Shown here: positions 1-57,088 of the stretch, one piece after another
Position numbering within the stretch: position 1 is the stretch's first letter
Layout: each line of letters opens with the position of its first letter
Origin: Escherichia coli
GTDB lineage: Bacteria; Pseudomonadota; Gammaproteobacteria; Enterobacterales; Enterobacteriaceae
Assembly (NCBI RefSeq): GCF_003334785.1
Contig: NZ_QOWV01000002.1
Length of the DNA: 64,000 nucleotides
Direction: 5' to 3' (one strand)
Program-made: the position numbers and the translations under genes
Notes under the pieces: generated by a model
The model's input: the letters and a program-made list of their open reading frames with translations, nothing else
Databases searched by the model: none
Told to the model about the DNA's origin: nothing

Positions 1-393
1 AAAAGCCTTTCGCTTTATCGCTCCGGAATAGGTAAATGCCTGCTTGCCTGGCAACCTGCAGCGGTACAGCAAAGTATTATCGAAGGGCTGGTCTGGGAGC
101 AGGCGACACCCACAACGATTACTCATCCACAGCAACTTCACGAAGAACTGGCGCGTATTCGCCGTCAGGGCTGGAGCTATGACAACGGCGAAGATTACGC
201 CGATGTCCGTTGTGTCGCTGCGCCGGTGTTTAACGCCAATAACGAGCTTACCGCTGCGATCTCGGTGGTCGGTACCCGCTTACAAATCAATGAAGAATAC
301 CGTGATTATCTGGCGGGCAAGGCCATTGCCTGCGCCAGGGATATTTCACGTCTGTTGGGATGGAAAAGTCCCTTTGACTTACAAGCCTCATAA
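1..393 (+). CDS. rhmR: IclR-family transcriptional regulator, 3' partial (L-rhamnonate operon regulator)
   Basis: Frame 1 is open from position 1 to TAA at 391-393; the translation (…[44 protein letters not shown]…) resembles an IclR effector-binding C-terminal domain; sits directly upstream of rhmD. Not in the ORF track because the start lies outside the window. Confidence 0.8.
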
Positions 394-407
394 CAATGGA
401 GAACATC

Positions 408-1613
408 ATGACCCTACCAAAAATTAAACAGGTTCGCGCCTGGTTTACTGGCGGTGCGACAGCAGAAAAAGGCGCTGGCGGCGGTGATTATCACGACCAG
501 GGGGCGAATCACTGGATAGACGATCATATTGCCACCCCGATGAGTAAATACCGCGATTACGAGCAGTCACGCCAGTCATTTGGCATTAACGTTCTTGGCA
601 CGTTGGTTGTTGAAGTCGAAGCAGAAAACGGCCAGACCGGATTCGCCGTTTCGACAGCCGGTGAAATGGGCTGTTTTATTGTCGAAAAACATCTTAACCG
701 TTTCATTGAGGGTAAATGTGTCAGTGATATCAAACTGATCCACGATCAAATGCTCAGTGCCACCCTGTATTACTCCGGCTCTGGTGGCCTGGTGATGAAT
801 ACGATTTCTTGTGTCGATCTGGCTCTGTGGGATCTGTTCGGCAAAGTGGTCGGGCTTCCGGTTTATAAACTTTTAGGCGGCGCTGTTCGTGATGAGATTC
901 AGTTCTACGCCACAGGTGCGCGTCCGGATCTGGCAAAAGAGATGGGCTTTATCGGTGGCAAAATGCCGACGCACTGGGGGCCACATGATGGCGATGCGGG
1001 GATCCGCAAAGATGCCGCTATGGTCGCGGATATGCGTGAAAAATGCGGTGAGGATTTCTGGTTAATGCTCGACTGCTGGATGAGTCAGGACGTGAACTAT
1101 GCGACCAAACTGGCCCACGCTTGCGCGCCCTATAACCTGAAATGGATCGAAGAGTGCCTGCCGCCACAGCAGTATGAAAGTTATCGCGAACTGAAACGCA
1201 ACGCGCCAGTCGGAATGATGGTCACCAGCGGTGAGCACCACGGCACACTGCAATCTTTTCGTACGCTTTCAGAAACCGGTATCGACATTATGCAGCCGGA
1301 TGTTGGCTGGTGCGGTGGTTTAACCACGCTGGTGGAAATTGCCGCAATCGCCAAATCCAGGGGGCAACTGGTGGTGCCGCACGGTTCGTCTGTTTACTCT
1401 CACCATGCGGTGATCACCTTCACCAATACGCCATTCAGCGAATTCCTGATGACCAGCCCGGATTGTTCAACGATGCGTCCGCAGTTTGACCCGATTCTGC
1501 TCAATGAGCCGGTTCCGGTGAATGGTCGTATTCATAAATCAGTGCTTGATAAACCCGGTTTTGGCGTCGAACTCAATCGTGACTGCAATTTGAAACGCCC
1601 CTACAGCCACTAA
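408..1613 (+). CDS. rhmD: L-rhamnonate dehydratase (enolase superfamily)
   Basis: ORF 396..1613; preferred ATG at 408 (MTLPKIK…) has GGAG 6 nt upstream; ATG at 396 is an alternative. Protein recognised as RhmD/YfaW. Confidence 0.92.
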
Positions 1614-1669
1614 TCACTCCGGGCGTTGCTGTGACAACGGTAACGCCCACATATTCTAAGGAGCTTTTT

Positions 1670-2958
1670 ATGAGCACCGCTTTGCTTGACGCCGTGGTGA
1701 AGAAAAACCGTGTGCGTTTAATTCCGTTTATGTTGGCGCTGTATGTGCTGGCGTTTCTCGACCGTTCGAATATCGGTTTTGCCAAACAGACCTACCAGAT
1801 TGATACCGGGTTGAGTAATGAAGCTTATGCGCTGGGAGCAGGCATTTTCTTTGTGGTATATGCGTTTCTGGGTGTTCCGGCGAATCTTTTGATGCGCAAA
1901 CTGGGGGCCAGAACCTGGATTGGTACGACAACACTGCTGTGGGGATTTCTTTCGGCAGCCATGGCATGGGCCGATACTGAAGCGAAATTTCTGATAGTTC
2001 GCACTCTGCTTGGTGCTGCGGAGGCCGGATTTTTCCCTGGTATGATTTATCTCACCTCGCAATGGTTTCCGCAGCGTAATCGCGCCAGCATTATGGGGCT
2101 GTTCTATATGGGCGCACCGCTGGCGTTAACACTGGGATCACCGCTTTCCGGCGCGCTGTTGGAGATGCATGGATTTATGGGGCATCCCGGCTGGTTCTGG
2201 ATGTTTGTGATTGAAGGATTGTTGGCAGTCGGTGCTGGGGTATTCACATTCTTTTGGCTTGATGACACACCGGAGCAGGCACGTTTTCTGAGTAAACAAG
2301 AAAAAACGTTGCTTATCAATCAACTGGCAAGTGAAGAACAACAGAAAGTGACTTCTCGGCTGAGCGATGCGCTGCGTAATGGCCGAGTCTGGCAACTAGC
2401 GATTATCTACCTGACCATTCAGGTGGCGGTTTACGGATTAATTTTCTTCTGCCGACCCAGGTTGCGGCATTGCTGGGAACAAAAGTGGGCTTTACAGCGT
2501 CGGTGGTCACCGCCATTCCGTGGGTTGCGGCCTTGTTTGGGACCTGGCTTATTCCGCGCTATTCCGATAAAACCGGCGAACGGCGTAATGTCGCAGCGCT
2601 GACATTACTGGCGGCGGGCATTGGTATTGGTCTGTCCGGGCTGCTTTCTCCAGTAATGGCGATCGTAGCGCTGTGTGTTGCAGCTATCGGGTTTATTGCC
2701 GTGCAGCCAGTGTTCTGGACGATGCCGACACAACTGCTTTCCGGTACGGCGCTGGCTGCGGGAATTGGTTTTGTAAACCTGTTTGGTGCAGTGGGCGGGT
2801 TTATTGCCCCGATCCTGCGCGTGAAAGCAGAAACGTTATTTGCCAGCGATGCGGCGGGATTACTGACGCTGGCAGCGGTGGCGGTCATCGGTTCGCTGAT
2901 TATTTTCACTCTGCGTGTAAATCGCACTGTTGCGCAGACCGACGTGGCACATCATTAA
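1670..2958 (+). pseudogene. rhmT: L-rhamnonate MFS transporter, reading frame broken by a 1-bp deletion near 2447-2451
   Basis: ATG at 1670 with AAGGAG at 1657-1662. Frame 2 ORF (1631..2602) and frame 1 ORF (2470..2958) together make one MFS transporter; the join is at ttcttc|tgccg where one base is missing, so frame 2 runs into …FFCRPRLRHCWEQKW… while frame 1 continues the real protein (LPTQVAALLGTKVGF…). Confidence 0.8.
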
Positions 2959-2975
2959 ATAGGTTAAGGAACACG

Positions 2976-3779
2976 ATGAACGCATTATTAAGCAATCCCT
3001 TTAAAGAACGTTTACGCAAGGGCGAAGTGCAAATTGGTCTGTGGTTAAGCTCAACGACTGCCTATATGGCAGAAATTGCCGCCACTTCTGGTTATGACTG
3101 GTTGCTGATTGACGGGGAGCACGCGCCAAACACCATTCAGGATCTTTATCATCAGCTACAGGCGGTAGCGCCCTATGCCAGCCAACCCGTGATCCGTCCG
3201 GTGGAAGGCAGTAAACCGCTGATTAAACAAGTCCTGGATATTGGCGCGCAAACTCTACTGATCCCGATGGTCGATACTGCCGAACAGGCACGTCAGGTGG
3301 TGTCTGCCACGCGCTATCCTCCCTACGGTGAGCGTGGTGTCGGGGCCAGTGTGGCACGGGCTGCGCGCTGGGGACGCATTGAGAATTACATGGCGCAAGT
3401 TAACGATTCGCTTTGTCTGTTGGTGCAGGTGGAAAGTAAAACGGCACTGGATAACCTGGACGAAATCCTCGACGTCGAAGGGATTGATGGCGTGTTTATT
3501 GGACCTGCGGATCTTTCTGCGTCGTTGGGCTACCCGGATAACGCCGGGCACCCGGAAGTGCAGCGAATTATTGAAACCAGTATTCGGCGGATCCGTGCTG
3601 CGGGTAAAGCGGCTGGTTTTCTGGCTGTGGCTCCTGATATGGCGCAGCAATGCCTGGCGTGGGGAGCGAACTTTGTCGCTGTTGGCGTTGACACGATGCT
3701 CTACAGCGATGCCCTGGATCAACGACTGGCGATGTTTAAATCAGGCAAAAATGGGCCACGCATAAAAGGTAGTTATTGA
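2976..3779 (+). CDS. rhmA: 2-keto-3-deoxy-L-rhamnonate aldolase (HpcH/HpaI family)
   Basis: ATG at 2976 ([24 protein letters not shown]…) preceded by AAGGAA; the ORF-track entry 2673..3779 is an upstream extension overlapping rhmT. 267 aa. Confidence 0.92.
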
Positions 3780-3819: not shown

Positions 3820-4005
3820 TTAGTGGTTATTCGCTGCCAGATCGGCTTCGCTTAGCTGGGTGGCCGCGAGCACCTGGTCACGATCAAAGCCCTGTTCCAG
3901 CATGCGCAAAGCAATTTTAATGGCTTGTTCATGCAAACCTTCTAATTTACCTTCCTGCCAGCCAATTTGATGTCCTTCCTGCCGCAGCCGTTCAGCAATA
4001 GTCAT
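3820..4005 (-). CDS. ypaA: Small ORF (61 aa) that is a tandem duplicate of the C-terminal tail of RpnB/YfaD
   Basis: 61-aa product [61 protein letters not shown] is close to identical to the last 56 aa of the adjacent yfaD product apart from a 5-aa insertion (KLEGL); own SD (AAGGAG, complement of 4012-4017) 6 nt upstream of the ATG. Confidence 0.6.
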   Translation of the reverse strand: MTIAERLRQEGHQIGWQEGKLEGLHEQAIKIALRMLEQGFDRDQVLAATQLSEADLAANNH

Positions 4006-4200
4006 TAATCTCTCCTTTTAATGACAGTTCGGAATATCAGCATCAGTGAGTTGGGTTGTCGCCAGCACAATCTCACGTTCAAAGCCCTGCTCCAGCATGC
4101 GCAAAGCAATTTTAATGGCTTGTTCATGCATACCTTCCTGCCAGCCAATTTGATGCCCTTCCTGCCGTAGCCGTTCAGCAATAGTCATTAATCTCTCCTT
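3826..4200. repeat. Tandem direct duplication (two units of about 185 bp) covering the 3' end of yfaD and all of ypaA
   Basis: 3841-4017 aligns with 4040-4200 at high identity, with a 15-bp indel (aaaccttctaattta present only in the ypaA copy); both copies end with cattaatctctcctttt. Confidence 0.8.
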
Positions 4201-4917
4201 TTGTAGTGGTGAACGTTCGGCAATCTCCTCAATAAAACGGGTGAAACGGGAGGTATCGCCGCATTGCAGCAGATAATTAAACAGTGTTTGTAGCTGGCTG
4301 TCATTAGTGAAGCCTCTAACCAAAAGCGTGGTGATCCTGTCGACCATGCCGATTAAATCGCGGTCGCGAATATGCTTTTGAATCAGTTCCAGCAGAGCTA
4401 TACGCCGATGTTGCATGATCTCATCGTCAGGTACGATGGTGATATCCACCAACGGAAAAGCTTCGGTGTACAACTGCCGGGCAAGTTGCGGATCGTCAAA
4501 CTCATCCAGCCAGTTGAGTGAGTACGGGTAAGGCGAGGTTTCGCCATGATAAAACAGCAACGGCACCACCAGCGGGACTCTGTCATAGCCTTTGTCCAGG
4601 TGACGCTGCATGGCGGCAGTGGCATAGCGCATTAGCCGAAAAGCCATATTCTTTTCTGCAGAGCTTTGATGTTCAATCACGCAGTAGATATAGCCGTCAC
4701 CGTCGCTGGTTTCCACGGACCACAAAACATCCGAGTAGTAAGCGCGTAAACTTTTTTCAATAAAACTAGTGGGTTCCAGGCGTAAGGTTTGCAGGTTGCA
4801 AAGCTTGCGCAGTGGTTCTGGTAAATGTATTTCGAGAAAATCCCGTGCGGTTTCGGGTGTGAACATAAAGGTTTTAAATACCGCATCATGCGGGGAGGAG
4901 GTTGTTGATTCGGTCAT
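4018..4917 (-). CDS. rpnB: YhgA-like (Rpn family) PD-(D/E)XK recombination-promoting nuclease / transposase_31-like protein
   Basis: 299-aa ORF recognised as YfaD/RpnB ([39 protein letters not shown]…). Confidence 0.85.
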
Positions 4918-9446: not shown

Positions 9447-10805
9447 ATGTTGAGTATTTTTAAACCAGCGCCACACAAAGCGCGCTTACCTGCCGCGGAG
9501 ATCGATCCGACTTATCGTCGATTGCGCTGGCAAATTTTCCTGGGGATATTCTTTGGCTATGCGGCTTACTATTTGGTTCGTAAGAACTTTGCGCTTGCTA
9601 TGCCTTATCTGGTTGAGCAGGGATTCTCACGCGGTGATTTAGGTTTTGCCCTTTCGGGGATCTCGATTGCTTATGGATTTTCGAAATTCATCATGGGTTC
9701 GGTATCGGATCGCTCGAATCCGCGCGTTTTCCTGCCCGCAGGTTTGATTCTGGCGGCGGCAGTGATGTTGTTTATGGGCTTTGTGCCATGGGCGACGTCG
9801 AGCATTGCGGTGATGTTTGTACTGTTGTTCCTCTGCGGTTGGTTCCAGGGGATGGGGTGGCCGCCGTGTGGTCGTACTATGGTGCACTGGTGGTCGCAGA
9901 AAGAACGTGGCGGCATTGTGTCAGTGTGGAACTGTGCGCACAACGTCGGTGGTGGTATTCCGCCGCTGCTGTTCCTGCTGGGGATGGCCTGGTTCAATGA
10001 CTGGCATGCGGCGCTCTATATGCCTGCTTTCTGCGCCATTCTGGTGGCATTATTCGCCTTTGCGATGATGCGCGATACCCCGCAATCCTGTGGCTTGCCG
10101 CCGATCGAAGAGTACAAAAATGATTATCCGGACGACTATAACGAAAAAGCGGAACAGGAGCTGACGGCGAAGCAAATCTTCATGCAGTACGTACTGCCGA
10201 ACAAACTGCTGTGGTATATCGCCATCGCCAACGTGTTCGTTTATCTGCTGCGTTACGGCATCCTCGACTGGTCACCGACTTATCTGAAAGAGGTTAAGCA
10301 TTTCGCGCTAGATAAATCCTCCTGGGCCTACTTCCTTTATGAATATGCAGGTATTCCGGGCACTCTGCTGTGCGGCTGGATGTCGGATAAAGTCTTCCGT
10401 GGCAACCGTGGGGCAACCGGCGTTTTCTTTATGACACTGGTGACCATCGCGACTATCGTTTACTGGATGAACCCGGCAGGTAACCCAACCGTCGATATGA
10501 TTTGTATGATTGTTATCGGCTTCCTGATCTACGGTCCTGTGATGCTGATCGGTCTGCATGCGCTGGAACTGGCACCGAAAAAAGCGGCAGGTACGGCAGC
10601 GGGCTTTACCGGGCTGTTTGGTTACCTGGGCGGTTCGGTGGCGGCGAGCGCGATTGTTGGCTACACCGTGGACTTCTTCGGCTGGGATGGCGGCTTTATG
10701 GTAATGATTGGCGGCAGCATTCTGGCGGTTATCTTGTTGATTGTTGTGATGATTGGCGAAAAACGTCGCCATGAACAATTACTGCAAGAACGCAACGGAG
10801 GCTAA
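9447..10805 (+). CDS. glpT: Glycerol-3-phosphate:phosphate antiporter (MFS)
   Basis: 452-aa ORF recognised as GlpT. Confidence 0.95.
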
Positions 10806-17651: not shown

Positions 17652-20600
17652 ATGCGGATTATCTTTCTACGCAAGGAGTATTTATCTTTACTCCCGTCAA
17701 TGATTGCATCTCTTTTCTCTGCTAACGGTGTCGCGGCGGTCACTGATTCATGCCAGGGATATGATGTCAAAGCGAGTTGTCAGGCCAGCAGGCAAAGCCT
17801 TTCAGGCATTACGCAGGACTGGAGTATCGCTGATGGGCAATGGCTGGTTTTTTCGGATATGACCAATAACGCCAGCGGTGGGGCCGTATTTTTGCAACAA
17901 GGAGCGGAATTTTCACTATTACCAGAAAATGAAACTGGAATGACTCTGTTTGCCAATAACACCGTTACAGGAGAATATAATAACGGCGGGGCCATATTTG
18001 CTAAAGAAAACTCAACGCTGAATCTTACTGATGTTATTTTTTCCGGTAACGTCGCAGGCGGCTATGGTGGCGCAATCTATTCTTCTGGTACTAACGATAC
18101 TGGTGCCGTCGATTTACGTGTCACTAACGCCATGTTTCGCAATAACATCGCTAATGATGGCAAAGGTGGCGCAATTTATACCATTAATAATGACGTTTAT
18201 TTAAGTGATGTTATTTTTGATAACAACCAGGCATATACATCAACAAGTTACAGTGATGGCGATGGCGGGGCAATCGATGTTACCGATAATAATAGCGACA
18301 GCAAGCATCCTTCAGGTTATACGATAGTAAATAACACTGCCTTTACAAATAACACTGCCGAAGGTTATGGCGGGGCGATATATACCAATAGCGTGACGGC
18401 TCCCTATCTTATTGATATTTCTGTTGATGACAGCTACAGCCAGAACGGAGGCGTGTTAGTCGATGAGAACAATAGCGCAGCAGGCTATGGAGATGGTCCT
18501 TCCTCTGCGGCGGGTGGCTTTATGTATCTCGGCTTAAGTGAAGTTACCTTTGATATTGCCGACGGAAAAACGCTGGTTATTGGCAATACAGAGAATGACG
18601 GAGCTGTTGACTCTATTGCTGGTACCGGGTTAATCACCAAAACAGGTTCCGGCGATCTGGTACTTAATGCAGATAACAATGACTTTACTGGTGAGATGCA
18701 GATTGAAAACGGTGAAGTTACCCTGGGCCGCAGCAACTCCCTGATGAATGTCGGCGATACGCATTGCCAGGACGATCCGCAAGACTGCTACGGTCTGACG
18801 ATAGGGAGTATTGATCAGTATCAGAATCAGGCTGAGCTAAACGTTGGCTCGACCCAACAAACTTTTGTGCACGCATTGACGGGCTTTCAGAATGGCACTT
18901 TAAATATCGATGCTGGTGGCAACGTTACTGTTAATCAGGGCAGTTTTGCTGGCATCATCGAAGGTGCTGGTCAGCTCACCATTGCGCAAAACGGCAGCTA
19001 CGTGCTGGCAGGGGCGCAGTCGATGGCGCTAACCGGCGATATAGTCGTTGATGATGGTGCGGTGCTTTCGCTGGAAGGCGACGCGGCAGATCTTACCGCT
19101 CTCCAGGACGATCCGCAGTCGATCGTGTTAAACGGCGGTGTGCTCGATCTCTCTGATTTCTCCACCTGGCAGAGCGGCACATCATACAACGATGGCCTTG
19201 AAGTCAGTGGCAGCAGCGGAACGGTTATCGGCAGTCAGGATGTGGTAGATCTTGCAGGTGGCGACAATTTGCATATCGGCGGCGACGGGAAAGATGGCGT
19301 CTACGTGGTGGTCGATGCGAGCGACGGGCAGGTAAGTCTGGCAAACAATAATAGTTATTTGGGCACAACACAAATCGCCTCCGGTACGCTGATGGTGAGC
19401 GACAACTCGCAGCTTGGAGATACCCACTATAACCGCCAGGTTATCTTTACCGATAAGCAACAAGAAAGCGTGATGGAGATTACCTCCGACGTTGACACGC
19501 GTTCAGATGCGGCAGGCCACGGACGTGATATTGAAATGCGCGCCGACGGTGAAGTGGCAGTTGATGCGGGGGTAGACACGCAGTGGGGCGCACTGATGGC
19601 TGACAGCAGCGGGCAGCATCAGGATGAGGGTAGCACATTGACTAAAACGGGGGCTGGTACACTGGAGCTGACCGCCAGCGGTACAACGCAGTCGGCGGTA
19701 CGTGTCGAAGAAGGCACCCTGAAAGGTGATGTTGCTGATATCCTTCCTTATGCTTCGTCACTGTGGGTTGGTGATGGGGCAACGTTCGTTACTGGCGCGG
19801 ATCAGGATATTCAGTCAATTGATGCTATTTCCAGCGGCACTATCGACATCAGCGATGGTACGGTTTTGCGCCTGACCGGGCAGGATACTTCCGTCGCCCT
19901 TAATGCCTCACTATTTAACGGCGATGGGACGCTGGTGAATGCCACCGATGGTGTGACGTTGACAGGTGAGCTTAATACCAACCTTGAAACTGACAGCCTG
20001 ACTTATCTTTCCAACGTGACGGTTAATGGCAATCTGACCAATACGTCCGGTGCGGTTAGCCTGCAAAATGGCGTCGCTGGCGATACGCTGACGGTAAACG
20101 GTGATTATACCGGCGGCGGTACGCTACTGCTCGATAGCGAATTAAACGGCGATGACTCGGTAAGCGATCAATTGGTGATGAACGGTAATACTGCTGGCAA
20201 CACAACTGTGGTGGTTAACTCCATTACAGGGATTGGTGAGCCGACATCGACAGGCATTAAAGTGGTTGATTTCGCAGCTGATCCCACGCAGTTTCAAAAC
20301 AATGCGCAGTTCAGTCTGGCAGGCAGCGGCTACGTCAATATGGGAGCGTATGACTACACGCTGGTGGAAGATAACAACGACTGGTATCTGCGATCGCAAG
20401 AAGTAACGCCGCCATCGCCACCTGATCCAGACCCGACTCCCGATCCTGATCCCACGCCGGATCCTGATCCAACACCCGACCCGGAACATACGCCTGCTTA
20501 CCAGCCGGTGTTGAATGCCAAAGTTGGCGGTTATCTCAATAACCTGCGGGCGGCAAATCAGGCGTTTATGATGGAGCGACGCGATCACGCAGGTGGCGAT

Positions 20601-25176: not shown

Positions 25177-32023
<6,847 letters not shown>

Positions 32024-48333: not shown

Positions 48334-48644
48334 TCGTGTTTATGACCTGTTAAAACTTCGCGAAGTGATAGAGCAGTATAAAGGGTACAGTGTGAAATTC
48401 CAGACTCTTACCTGATTGATGATTCTCTATTCTCCCGTGATATTTATCATCCTGCATTGGGGGAAATAGATGTACAAGCGCCATTTTGCTGTACAAATAA
48501 CCTACAAAAAGCCCAACAAAAATAATTGCAAATAAACAAAGATTGCTGGAAATTATGCGGATGTTAATTATTTGTGAAATAGTTAACAAGCGTTATAGTT
48601 TTTCTGTGGTAGCACAGAATAATGAAAAGTGTGTAAAGAAGGGT

Positions 48645-51415: not shown

Positions 51416-52480
51416 ATGAAAAAAGCCACATGCTTAACTGACGATCAACGCTGGCAATCTGTCTTAGCCCGCGACCCGAATGCCGACGGCGAATTCGTTT
51501 TCGCCGTGCGTACCACAGGCATCTTTTGCCGTCCGTCTTGCCGCGCCAGACATGCTTTGCGGGAAAACGTCTCCTTCTACGCAAATGCCAGCGAGGCACT
51601 CGCCGCTGGCTTTCGCCCCTGCAAACGTTGTCAGCCAGAAAAAGCCAATGCCCAGCAACATCGGTTGGATAAAATCACCCACGCGTGTCGACTGCTGGAA
51701 CAGGAAACGCCTGTAACGCTGGAAGCCTTAGCCGACCAGGTGGCGATGAGTCCATTTCATCTACATCGGTTGTTTAAAGCGACTACCGGAATGACGCCTA
51801 AAGCCTGGCAACAGGCCTGGCGCGCTCGCCGTTTGCGCGAATCGCTGGCGAAAGGGGAGAGCGTGACGACGTCTATTCTTAACGCCGGATTCCCCGACAG
51901 CAGCAGTTACTATCGCAAAGCTGACGAAACGCTGGGCATGACGGCTAAACAATTCCGTCACGGTGGCGAAAATCTGGCGGTGCGTTACGCGCTGGCTGAT
52001 TGTGAGCTGGGTCGTTGCCTGGTGGCAGAAAGCGAGCGGGGGATTTGCGCGATATTGCTGGGCGATGATGACGCGACACTAATCAGCGAGTTGCAGCAGA
52101 TGTTTCCCGCTGCCGACAACGCGCCTGCCGATCTGATGTTTCAGCAACATGTGCGTGAAGTGATCGCCAGCCTCAATCAACGCGATACGCCGCTGACGTT
52201 ACCGCTGGACATTCGCGGCACTGCTTTTCAGCAACAAGTCTGGCAGGCACTGCGCACGATACCTTGCGGTGAAACCGTCAGTTATCAGCAACTGGCTAAC
52301 GCCATCGGCAAACCGAAAGCGGTACGGGCCGTTGCCAGCGCCTGTGCCGCCAACAAGCTGGCTATCATAATACCCTGTCATCGGGTGGTCCGTGGTGATG
52401 GCACACTTTCCGGTTACCGCTGGGGCGTGTCGCGTAAAGCGCAACTGCTGCGCCGCGAAGCTGAAAATGAGGAGAGGTAA
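51416..52480 (+). CDS. ada: Bifunctional regulator / O6-methylguanine-DNA methyltransferase Ada
   Basis: 354-aa ORF; N-terminal Zn-Cys cluster, AraC-type HTH and C-terminal PCHRV active site. Confidence 0.95.
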   Translation: MKKATCLTDDQRWQSVLARDPNADGEFVFAVRTTGIFCRPSCRARHALRENVSFYANASEALAAGFRPCKRCQPEKANAQQHRLDKITHACRLLEQETPVTLEALADQVAMSPFHLHRLFKATTGMTPKAWQQAWRARRLRESLAKGESVTTSILNAGFPDSSSYYRKADETLGMTAKQFRHGGENLAVRYALADCELGRCLVAESERGICAILLGDDDATLISELQQMFPAADNAPADLMFQQHVREVIASLNQRDTPLTLPLDIRGTAFQQQVWQALRTIPCGETVSYQQLANAIGKPKAVRAVASACAANKLAIIIPCHRVVRGDGTLSGYRWGVSRKAQLLRREAENEER

Positions 52481-56713: not shown

Positions 56714-57075
56714 TGATGCGCCACATCCGGCATGGTATGCCGGATGTGGCGTATGCTGATAAGACGCGCCAGCGTCGCATCAGGCAACCGGCTCGGGCGT
56801 TAGATGTTGGATGCGGCGTAACCGCCTTATCCAACCTACGGGGTGGAGCACTTCACAGCGGTGTAGGCCTGATAAGACGCGCCAGCGTCGCATCAGGCAA
56901 CCGGCTTGGGCGTTAGATGTCGGATGCGGCGTAACCGCCTTATCCGACCTACGGGGTGGAGCACTTCACAGCGGTGTAGGCCTGATAAGACGCGCCAGCG
57001 TCGCATCAGGCAACCGGCTCGGGCGTTGGATGTCGGATGCGGCGTGACCGCCTTGTCTGACCTACGGGGTGCCGC
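56714..57075. repeat. Terminator hairpin followed by three tandem REP/BIME units of about 95-100 bp
   Basis: Perfect hairpin gcgccacatccggcat-ggt-atgccggatgtggcg (56718-56751), then three near-identical copies of gataagacgcgccagcgtcgcatcaggcaaccggc…gatgcggcgtaaccgccttatcc…acggggtggagcacttcacagcggtgtaggcct; these produce the spurious overlapping ORFs 56713..57274. Confidence 0.8.
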
Positions 57076-57088
57076 ACTTCACGGCAGT

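Follow-up and report, generated by a model that had tools for sequence, protein, structure and literature searches.

The rhm region lies at the start of the window, by which we mean the whole 64,000-nt stretch of Escherichia coli DNA analysed here, with yfaX, rhmD, rhmT and rhmA (yfaU) in one orientation (Table 1). The rhmT gene is the orthologue of K-12 yfaV (b2246), within the conserved yfaX-rhmD-yfaV-yfaU arrangement. At its place, the program-made list of open reading frames (ORFs) gives two entries on the plus strand in differing frames, 1631..2602 and 2470..2958. The start of rhmT is ATG 1670, with the ribosome-binding site taaggag ahead of it, rather than GTG 1631. The first-pass annotation had read the two entries as halves of one MFS transporter, and this reading holds. 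In an NCBIfam profile search, the truncated ORF covers positions 2-238 of TIGR00893, the C-terminal ORF covers 252-398, and the repaired protein covers 2-398. The two ORFs are thus collinear, non-overlapping parts of a single profile and not a chance juxtaposition, and putting one C back yields a 429-aa protein identical throughout to ATCC 8739 YfaV/RhmT.

Table 1. Features of the rhm region, in window positions
Feature	Position	Strand	Remarks
yfaX, 3' part (IclR-family regulator)	1..393	+	Cut by the window start; coordinates from the JKHS016 annotation
rhmD (L-rhamnonate dehydratase), intact	408..1613	+	Upstream of rhmT, same orientation; identical to JKHS016 WP_001319848.1
rhmT/yfaV pseudogene	1670..2958	+	1289 nt, against 1290 nt / 429 aa in the intact gene; from alignment to ATCC 8739 and K-12
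Truncated ORF, 310 codons	1670..2602	+	260 native residues (TM1-TM7) and a 50-residue out-of-frame tail; TGA 2600-2602
Deletion junction	2449..2450	+	Single C at 2449, CC in the reference (TTCTTC[C]TGCCG); sole gap against K-12
C-terminal remnant ORF, native frame	2470..2958	+	162 codons from TTG 2470; frame open from 2380; TM8-TM12
rhmA/yfaU (2-keto-3-deoxy-L-rhamnonate aldolase), intact	2976..3779	+	Same coding sequence as in JKHS016, whose annotation gives it as intact

A single missing base accounts for the broken frame. Base-by-base alignment to the intact ATCC 8739 gene places the loss at 2449/2450, where one C is gone from a CC pair inside TTCTTCCTG; the reference reads TTCTTCCTGCCG and the window reads TTCTTCTGCCG (positions 2435-2461 of the window are GGATTAATTTTCTTCTGCCGACCCAGG). 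The alignment contains this one 1-nt gap, in agreement with the earlier claim of a single-base deletion in the ttcttc(c)tgccg context. In a four-way alignment with ATCC 8739, JKHS016 and AST198 the gap is again the only change, and JKHS016 and AST198 also read TTCTTCTGCCG. In the alignment to reference rhmT alleles, which had been proposed as a check, ATCC 8739 and K-12 are in frame, and JKHS016 and AST198 carry the same deletion. Translation from ATG 1670 runs through 260 residues to ...VYGLIFF, which is followed by the nucleotides tgccgacccag, and continues as CRPRLRHCWEQKW... until the TGA at 2600-2602, the stop at which the in-frame continuation had been said to end. rhmT is a frameshift pseudogene, since the intact orthologue differs from it by an indel that is not divisible by three. 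The premature stop takes away an essential part of the protein, namely TM8-12 (residues 261-429).

The repaired product is an MFS protein (PF07690) with about 12 predicted helices in two halves. Its hydropathy peaks fit about 12 TMs, with a central loop at about 200-240. The break after residue 260 comes where the hydropathy peak at 243-261 (predicted TM7) ends, and four or five peaks (TM8-12) lie downstream. The out-of-frame tail encoded by 2450..2599 comprises 50 residues, with 11 K+R and 1 D+E. Pfam PF07690 MFS_1 is recorded on a product identical to the 310-aa truncated ORF. In the MFS fold, the substrate path is formed between two six-helix domains. Truncated RhmT, without five of the twelve helices (TM8-12), is predicted to be unable to transport, because nearly the whole C-domain, and with it half of the substrate pathway, is gone.

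The name "L-rhamnonate transporter" rests on the operon context with rhmD and rhmA. The repaired RhmT aligns end to end with TIGR00893 (MFS anion:cation symporter-type, D-galactonate subfamily; positions 2-398 of 399, E = 2e-74), but its 250.8 bits fall below the curated cut-off of 395, which makes it a relative and not a member of that subfamily. No NCBIfam equivalog was hit at its cut-off; the protein resembles the D-galactonate and 4-hydroxyphenylacetate permease profiles, with scores under the cut-offs of both. PGAP names yfaV simply "MFS transporter". An EcoCyc analysis in 2013 listed L-rhamnonate as a dead-end metabolite, without metabolic or transport reactions to account for it (PMC3781023). 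Literature matches to rhmT/yfaV were mostly unrelated acronyms, and experimental work on the transporter was not apparent among the papers listed. The earlier statement that the deletion would inactivate L-rhamnonate uptake is thus sound for the broken frame, while the substrate and the loss of activity are both points that we infer. At the protein level, the repaired window product equals ATCC 8739 YfaV/RhmT (WP_001295288.1; in frame, 12-TM) at 429/429 residues and differs from K-12 MG1655 YfaV (b2246, NP_416749.4) only at residue 115, which is R and not G in K-12. This codon, at window position 2012 and within the predicted-helix segment TLLGAAEAGFFPG, is Gly (GGT) in the window and ATCC 8739 and Arg (CGT) in K-12 MG1655.

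The allele is rare but recurrent in public genomes. With window 1600-3000 as the query, 4,172 of 5,426 complete E. coli genomes gave a match. About 23% of complete genomes gave none; the locus is dispensable in nature. Among the top matches, those in JKHS016 and AST198 span exactly 1401 bases and all others span 1402. A 61-nt query centred on the lesion matched exactly in only two of the 3,360 complete genomes that hold the segment (0.06%), and comparison with the same query showed the extra C to be present in K-12 MG1655 and C600. JKHS016 is an ESBL-producing strain from hospital wastewater with a complete genome from hybrid Illumina and ONT sequencing (bioRxiv 10.1101/2024.04.24.590863), and AST198 is an astA-positive strain that was isolated from a foodborne outbreak (PMC12718105); the two come from separate Japanese laboratories. 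Both are identical to the window over 1600-3000, with the missing C and the same yfaX-rhmD-yfaV-yfaU neighbours, and PGAP annotates their yfaV as a pseudogene, "MFS transporter, frameshifted" (WAZ83_RS02990 in JKHS016 and ACZ44X_RS12655 in AST198).

The exact 310-aa product was found on 179 contigs in assemblies from NCBI, ENA and Logan (255 index blocks). Among them are GenBank proteins of 2014 named "inner membrane transport protein RhmT", including those of strains 3-020-07_S3_C1 and 2-460-02_S4_C2. Four such 310-aa entries (KDY69760.1, KDY77297.1, KDZ41767.1 and KEJ50158.1) are exactly the product of window 1670..2602 and were deposited as ordinary proteins, with no frameshift remark. Among draft genomes that carry the allele, GCA_030003255.1 agrees with the window at each of the 12,602 bases that could be compared, and GCA_000711565.1 differs by three SNPs. 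The exact allele is already present in public databases, bears the RefSeq flag "frameshifted", and is an ordinary lineage-specific pseudogene.

The same records bear on whether the missing C is a sequencing or assembly artefact in a strain that truly has CC and an intact rhmT. Assemblies built from long reads alone typically err by single-base deletions, and the window holds only three copies of a 113-nt repeat that has five or six copies in relatives, which could hint at a short-read draft with collapse. However, two complete genomes produced by different laboratories have the identical deletion, and one of these is a hybrid with Illumina reads; the 179 contigs that carry the allele product include NCBI drafts and Logan assemblies of public runs. 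The lesion lies in a CC dinucleotide and not in a homopolymer, and it overlaps neither a Dam (GATC) nor a Dcm (CCWGG) motif. Apart from the repeat copy number, no other indel relative to K-12 was found in the window, which speaks against both an error-prone assembly and systematic motif-linked errors. The deletion is real and is reproduced in independent sequencing. Its recurrence in independent and hybrid assemblies, together with the otherwise indel-free window, also argues that it is inherited, and on the same grounds we discarded sequencing error as the cause of the frameshift, a very improbable origin for it.

Comparison with K-12 and with the two carriers places the window strain within a small group of relatives. 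In the K-12 MG1655 comparison, which begins at window position 323, the rhmT gap is the only indel besides the copy number of the 113-nt intergenic repeat. This fits the first-pass impression that the remaining genes of the window look intact. The window is a third genome beside the two carriers, and none of the complete RefSeq genomes is an exact match for it. Outside the repeat block, the window differs from AST198 by 5 SNPs and from JKHS016 by 8 SNPs. The SNPs at 20488 and 48372 of the window are absent from JKHS016, AST198 and K-12. Conversely, JKHS016 and AST198, but not the window, carry a C>A change in ada at window-equivalent 52018 that converts codon 201 from TGC to TGA; they also have five and not three copies of the 113-nt repeat. 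This nested pattern, with the rhmT deletion in all three genomes and the ada stop in two, is the one expected if they descend from a common ancestor. The window strain is not K-12, in which rhmT is intact; judged by the similarity of the region, it belongs to a small K-12-like clade in which the allele was inherited.

Several further differences were recorded in the course of these comparisons. The ada gene (51416..52480, site 52016-52018) is intact in the window, encoding 354 aa with TGC for Cys201, and PGAP lists it as a pseudogene with an internal stop in JKHS016 and AST198; part of the clade has thus lost the adaptive-response regulator / O6-methylguanine methyltransferase. The mqo-eco intergenic region (56756..57082) holds a tandem 113-nt unit with REP-like palindromes, in 2.9 copies in the window, 5 in JKHS016 and AST198, and 6 in K-12 MG1655. 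The difference is either true copy-number variation or a collapse in short-read assembly. The SNP at 20488 is nonsynonymous and falls in codon 946 of yfaL, which encodes the AIDA-I-type autotransporter adhesin YfaL/EhaC (CAT, His, in the window; CCT, Pro, in JKHS016, AST198 and K-12). The SNP at 48372 (A in the window, G in JKHS016, AST198 and K-12) lies 39 nt ahead of the rcsD start codon (minus strand, ATG 48333-48331), within the rcsD-micF-ompC intergenic region.

Other observations concern gene integrity elsewhere in these genomes. In AST198, glpT (L006 38681..39994) is annotated at 1314 nt, compared with 1359 nt in JKHS016 and K-12, a difference of roughly 45 nt at window-equivalent ~10713-10746; the window has the full-length form. 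In GCA_000711565.1, rpnE (L011 12349..13248, corresponding to window 4018..4917) is called as two pieces of 204 and 77 aa, and this genome has a G>C SNP at window-equivalent 4684. This could mean that the branch has a second pseudogene, or it could stem from an error in assembly. Adjoining rpnE (4018..4917, minus strand) in the window is a 61-codon ORF at 3820..4005 (minus strand) that corresponds to K-12 ypaA, a pseudogene there. It repeats the C-terminal HTH_Rpn_C part of RpnE, and PGAP annotates it in carrier genomes as an incomplete hypothetical protein. yfaS (alpha-2-macroglobulin-family; 27404..32023, plus strand) is a single uninterrupted ORF of 1539 codons in the window; the annotations of JKHS016 and AST198 give it as intact (4515 nt), and that of K-12 MG1655 as a pseudogene (b4500). 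The window and K-12 differ in yfaS by substitutions only (28411 and 31522).

Given a real deletion, a functional full-length transporter could still arise through programmed -1 ribosomal frameshifting or transcriptional slippage, a prospect that we rate as highly unlikely. A -1 shift does give back the native frame if it takes place at the lesion or shortly ahead of it, tRNA-Phe can re-pair in the -1 frame on A-UUU-UC, and one formal X XXY YYZ heptamer, TTTGGGA, is present at 2536 in the shifted frame. This heptamer, however, lies 87 nt past the lesion; a shift there would still get 29 residues across TM8 wrong, and every intact allele has the heptamer as well. No X XXY YYZ heptamer occurs at the lesion or in 2380-2535. 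The 79 nt downstream of the lesion have a minimum free energy of -24.4 kcal/mol, shuffled versions average -27.3 (z = +0.90), and 156 of 200 shuffles fold as well, so the RNA is no better folded than shuffled sequence. Transcriptional slippage requires a far longer run than 4 nt, which is the full length of the T run here. The frameshifted arrangement is also not conserved, occurring in 2 of 3,360 complete genomes. As the flanks are identical to those of intact alleles and the shifted form is so rare, no recoding signal can have evolved. The missing heptamer at the site, the lack of structure, the 4-nt T run and the absence of conservation together led us to reject programmed frameshifting and transcriptional slippage. 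Trace spontaneous -1 slippage just upstream (AUU UUC > UUU) might still yield some full-length protein, with the change F260L, at the level of background noise.

The position of the break raises a related question, whether TM1-7 and a separately initiated TM8-12 fragment could assemble into an active transporter. Bibi and Kaback are said to have found in 1990 that lactose permease (LacY) expressed as two fragments can be active. In rhmT, the break falls at a helix-loop boundary and not in mid-helix, and the in-frame codons TTG 2470 and GTG 2485 follow directly after it. Against such complementation, inspection by eye revealed no convincing ribosome-binding site for the remnant ORF at TTG 2470, and neither TTG 2470 nor GTG 2485 has a convincing Shine-Dalgarno sequence ahead of it (...CCCAGGTTGCGGCA and ...GGGAACAAAA, respectively). 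Gene callers applied to other carriers of the allele call only a 100-aa piece of the remnant, from ATG 2656. Moreover, ribosomes running in the 0 frame to 2602 would occlude both candidate starts, and the tail with its 11 K+R would probably be periplasmic, contrary to the positive-inside rule. Taken together, we give split-gene complementation only a very small chance.

A reversible, phase-variable switch through a hypermutable repeat was also considered, as a 1-nt length change resembles the lesions of contingency loci. The site offers only a CC flanked by TTCTTC, with no homopolymer or multi-unit repeat, and the absence of a repeat tract was our reason to dismiss phase variation. Of 3,360 genomes, 3,358 are in the ON frame, and the clade in which the OFF allele is fixed has since gained other mutations. 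The probability of such a switch at rhmT is negligible.

The flanking genes of the pathway are unaffected at the sequence level. The first-pass annotation held that rhmD and rhmA are left intact, and both coding sequences match the intact annotation of JKHS016. rhmA begins 374 nt past the premature stop, and the untranslated stretch 2603..2976 is G-rich (C/G 0.73), with a maximum C minus G of +2 over any 78-nt window. Strong Rho-dependent polarity on rhmA was set aside on the predicted poor Rho loading of this G-rich stretch; any such polarity is expected to be modest at most.

The most probable explanation by far, from sequence comparison, is that rhmT (yfaV) in the window strain is a genuine, vertically inherited pseudogene. 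An ancestor of the small K-12-like E. coli clade would have lost one C of the CC pair, at codon 261 (CTG, Leu). From ATG 1670, translation now keeps to the native frame up to Phe260, where TM7 ends, then adds 50 unrelated, strongly basic residues and terminates at TGA 2600-2602. The allele may have persisted because a dispensable accessory pathway is decaying neutrally, or nearly so. It is very unlikely, though conceivable, that the loss is a selected, clade-defining loss of function, or that the 7-TM fragment with its basic tail has an activity of its own. Such a reading could draw on the presence of an astA outbreak strain and an ESBL wastewater strain in the clade and on the persistence of the allele onto 179 contigs. 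If the loss was selected, it might, for example, keep a toxic sugar-acid analogue out of the cell or alter how carbon is used in the gut or in wastewater.

Under the favoured reading of an inherited pseudogene, the allele has little import beyond bookkeeping, as a clean and verified case of an accessory catabolic operon with a lineage-specific pseudogene. The 310-aa GenBank "RhmT" entries are frameshift products filed as ordinary proteins. The deletion could serve as a genotyping marker for the small K-12-like E. coli clade and forms a nested pair with the ada nonsense mutation. Carriers of the allele are predicted to be unable to import the sugar acid of RhmT, and they would offer a ready natural knockout for checking the tentative L-rhamnonate assignment of YfaV.
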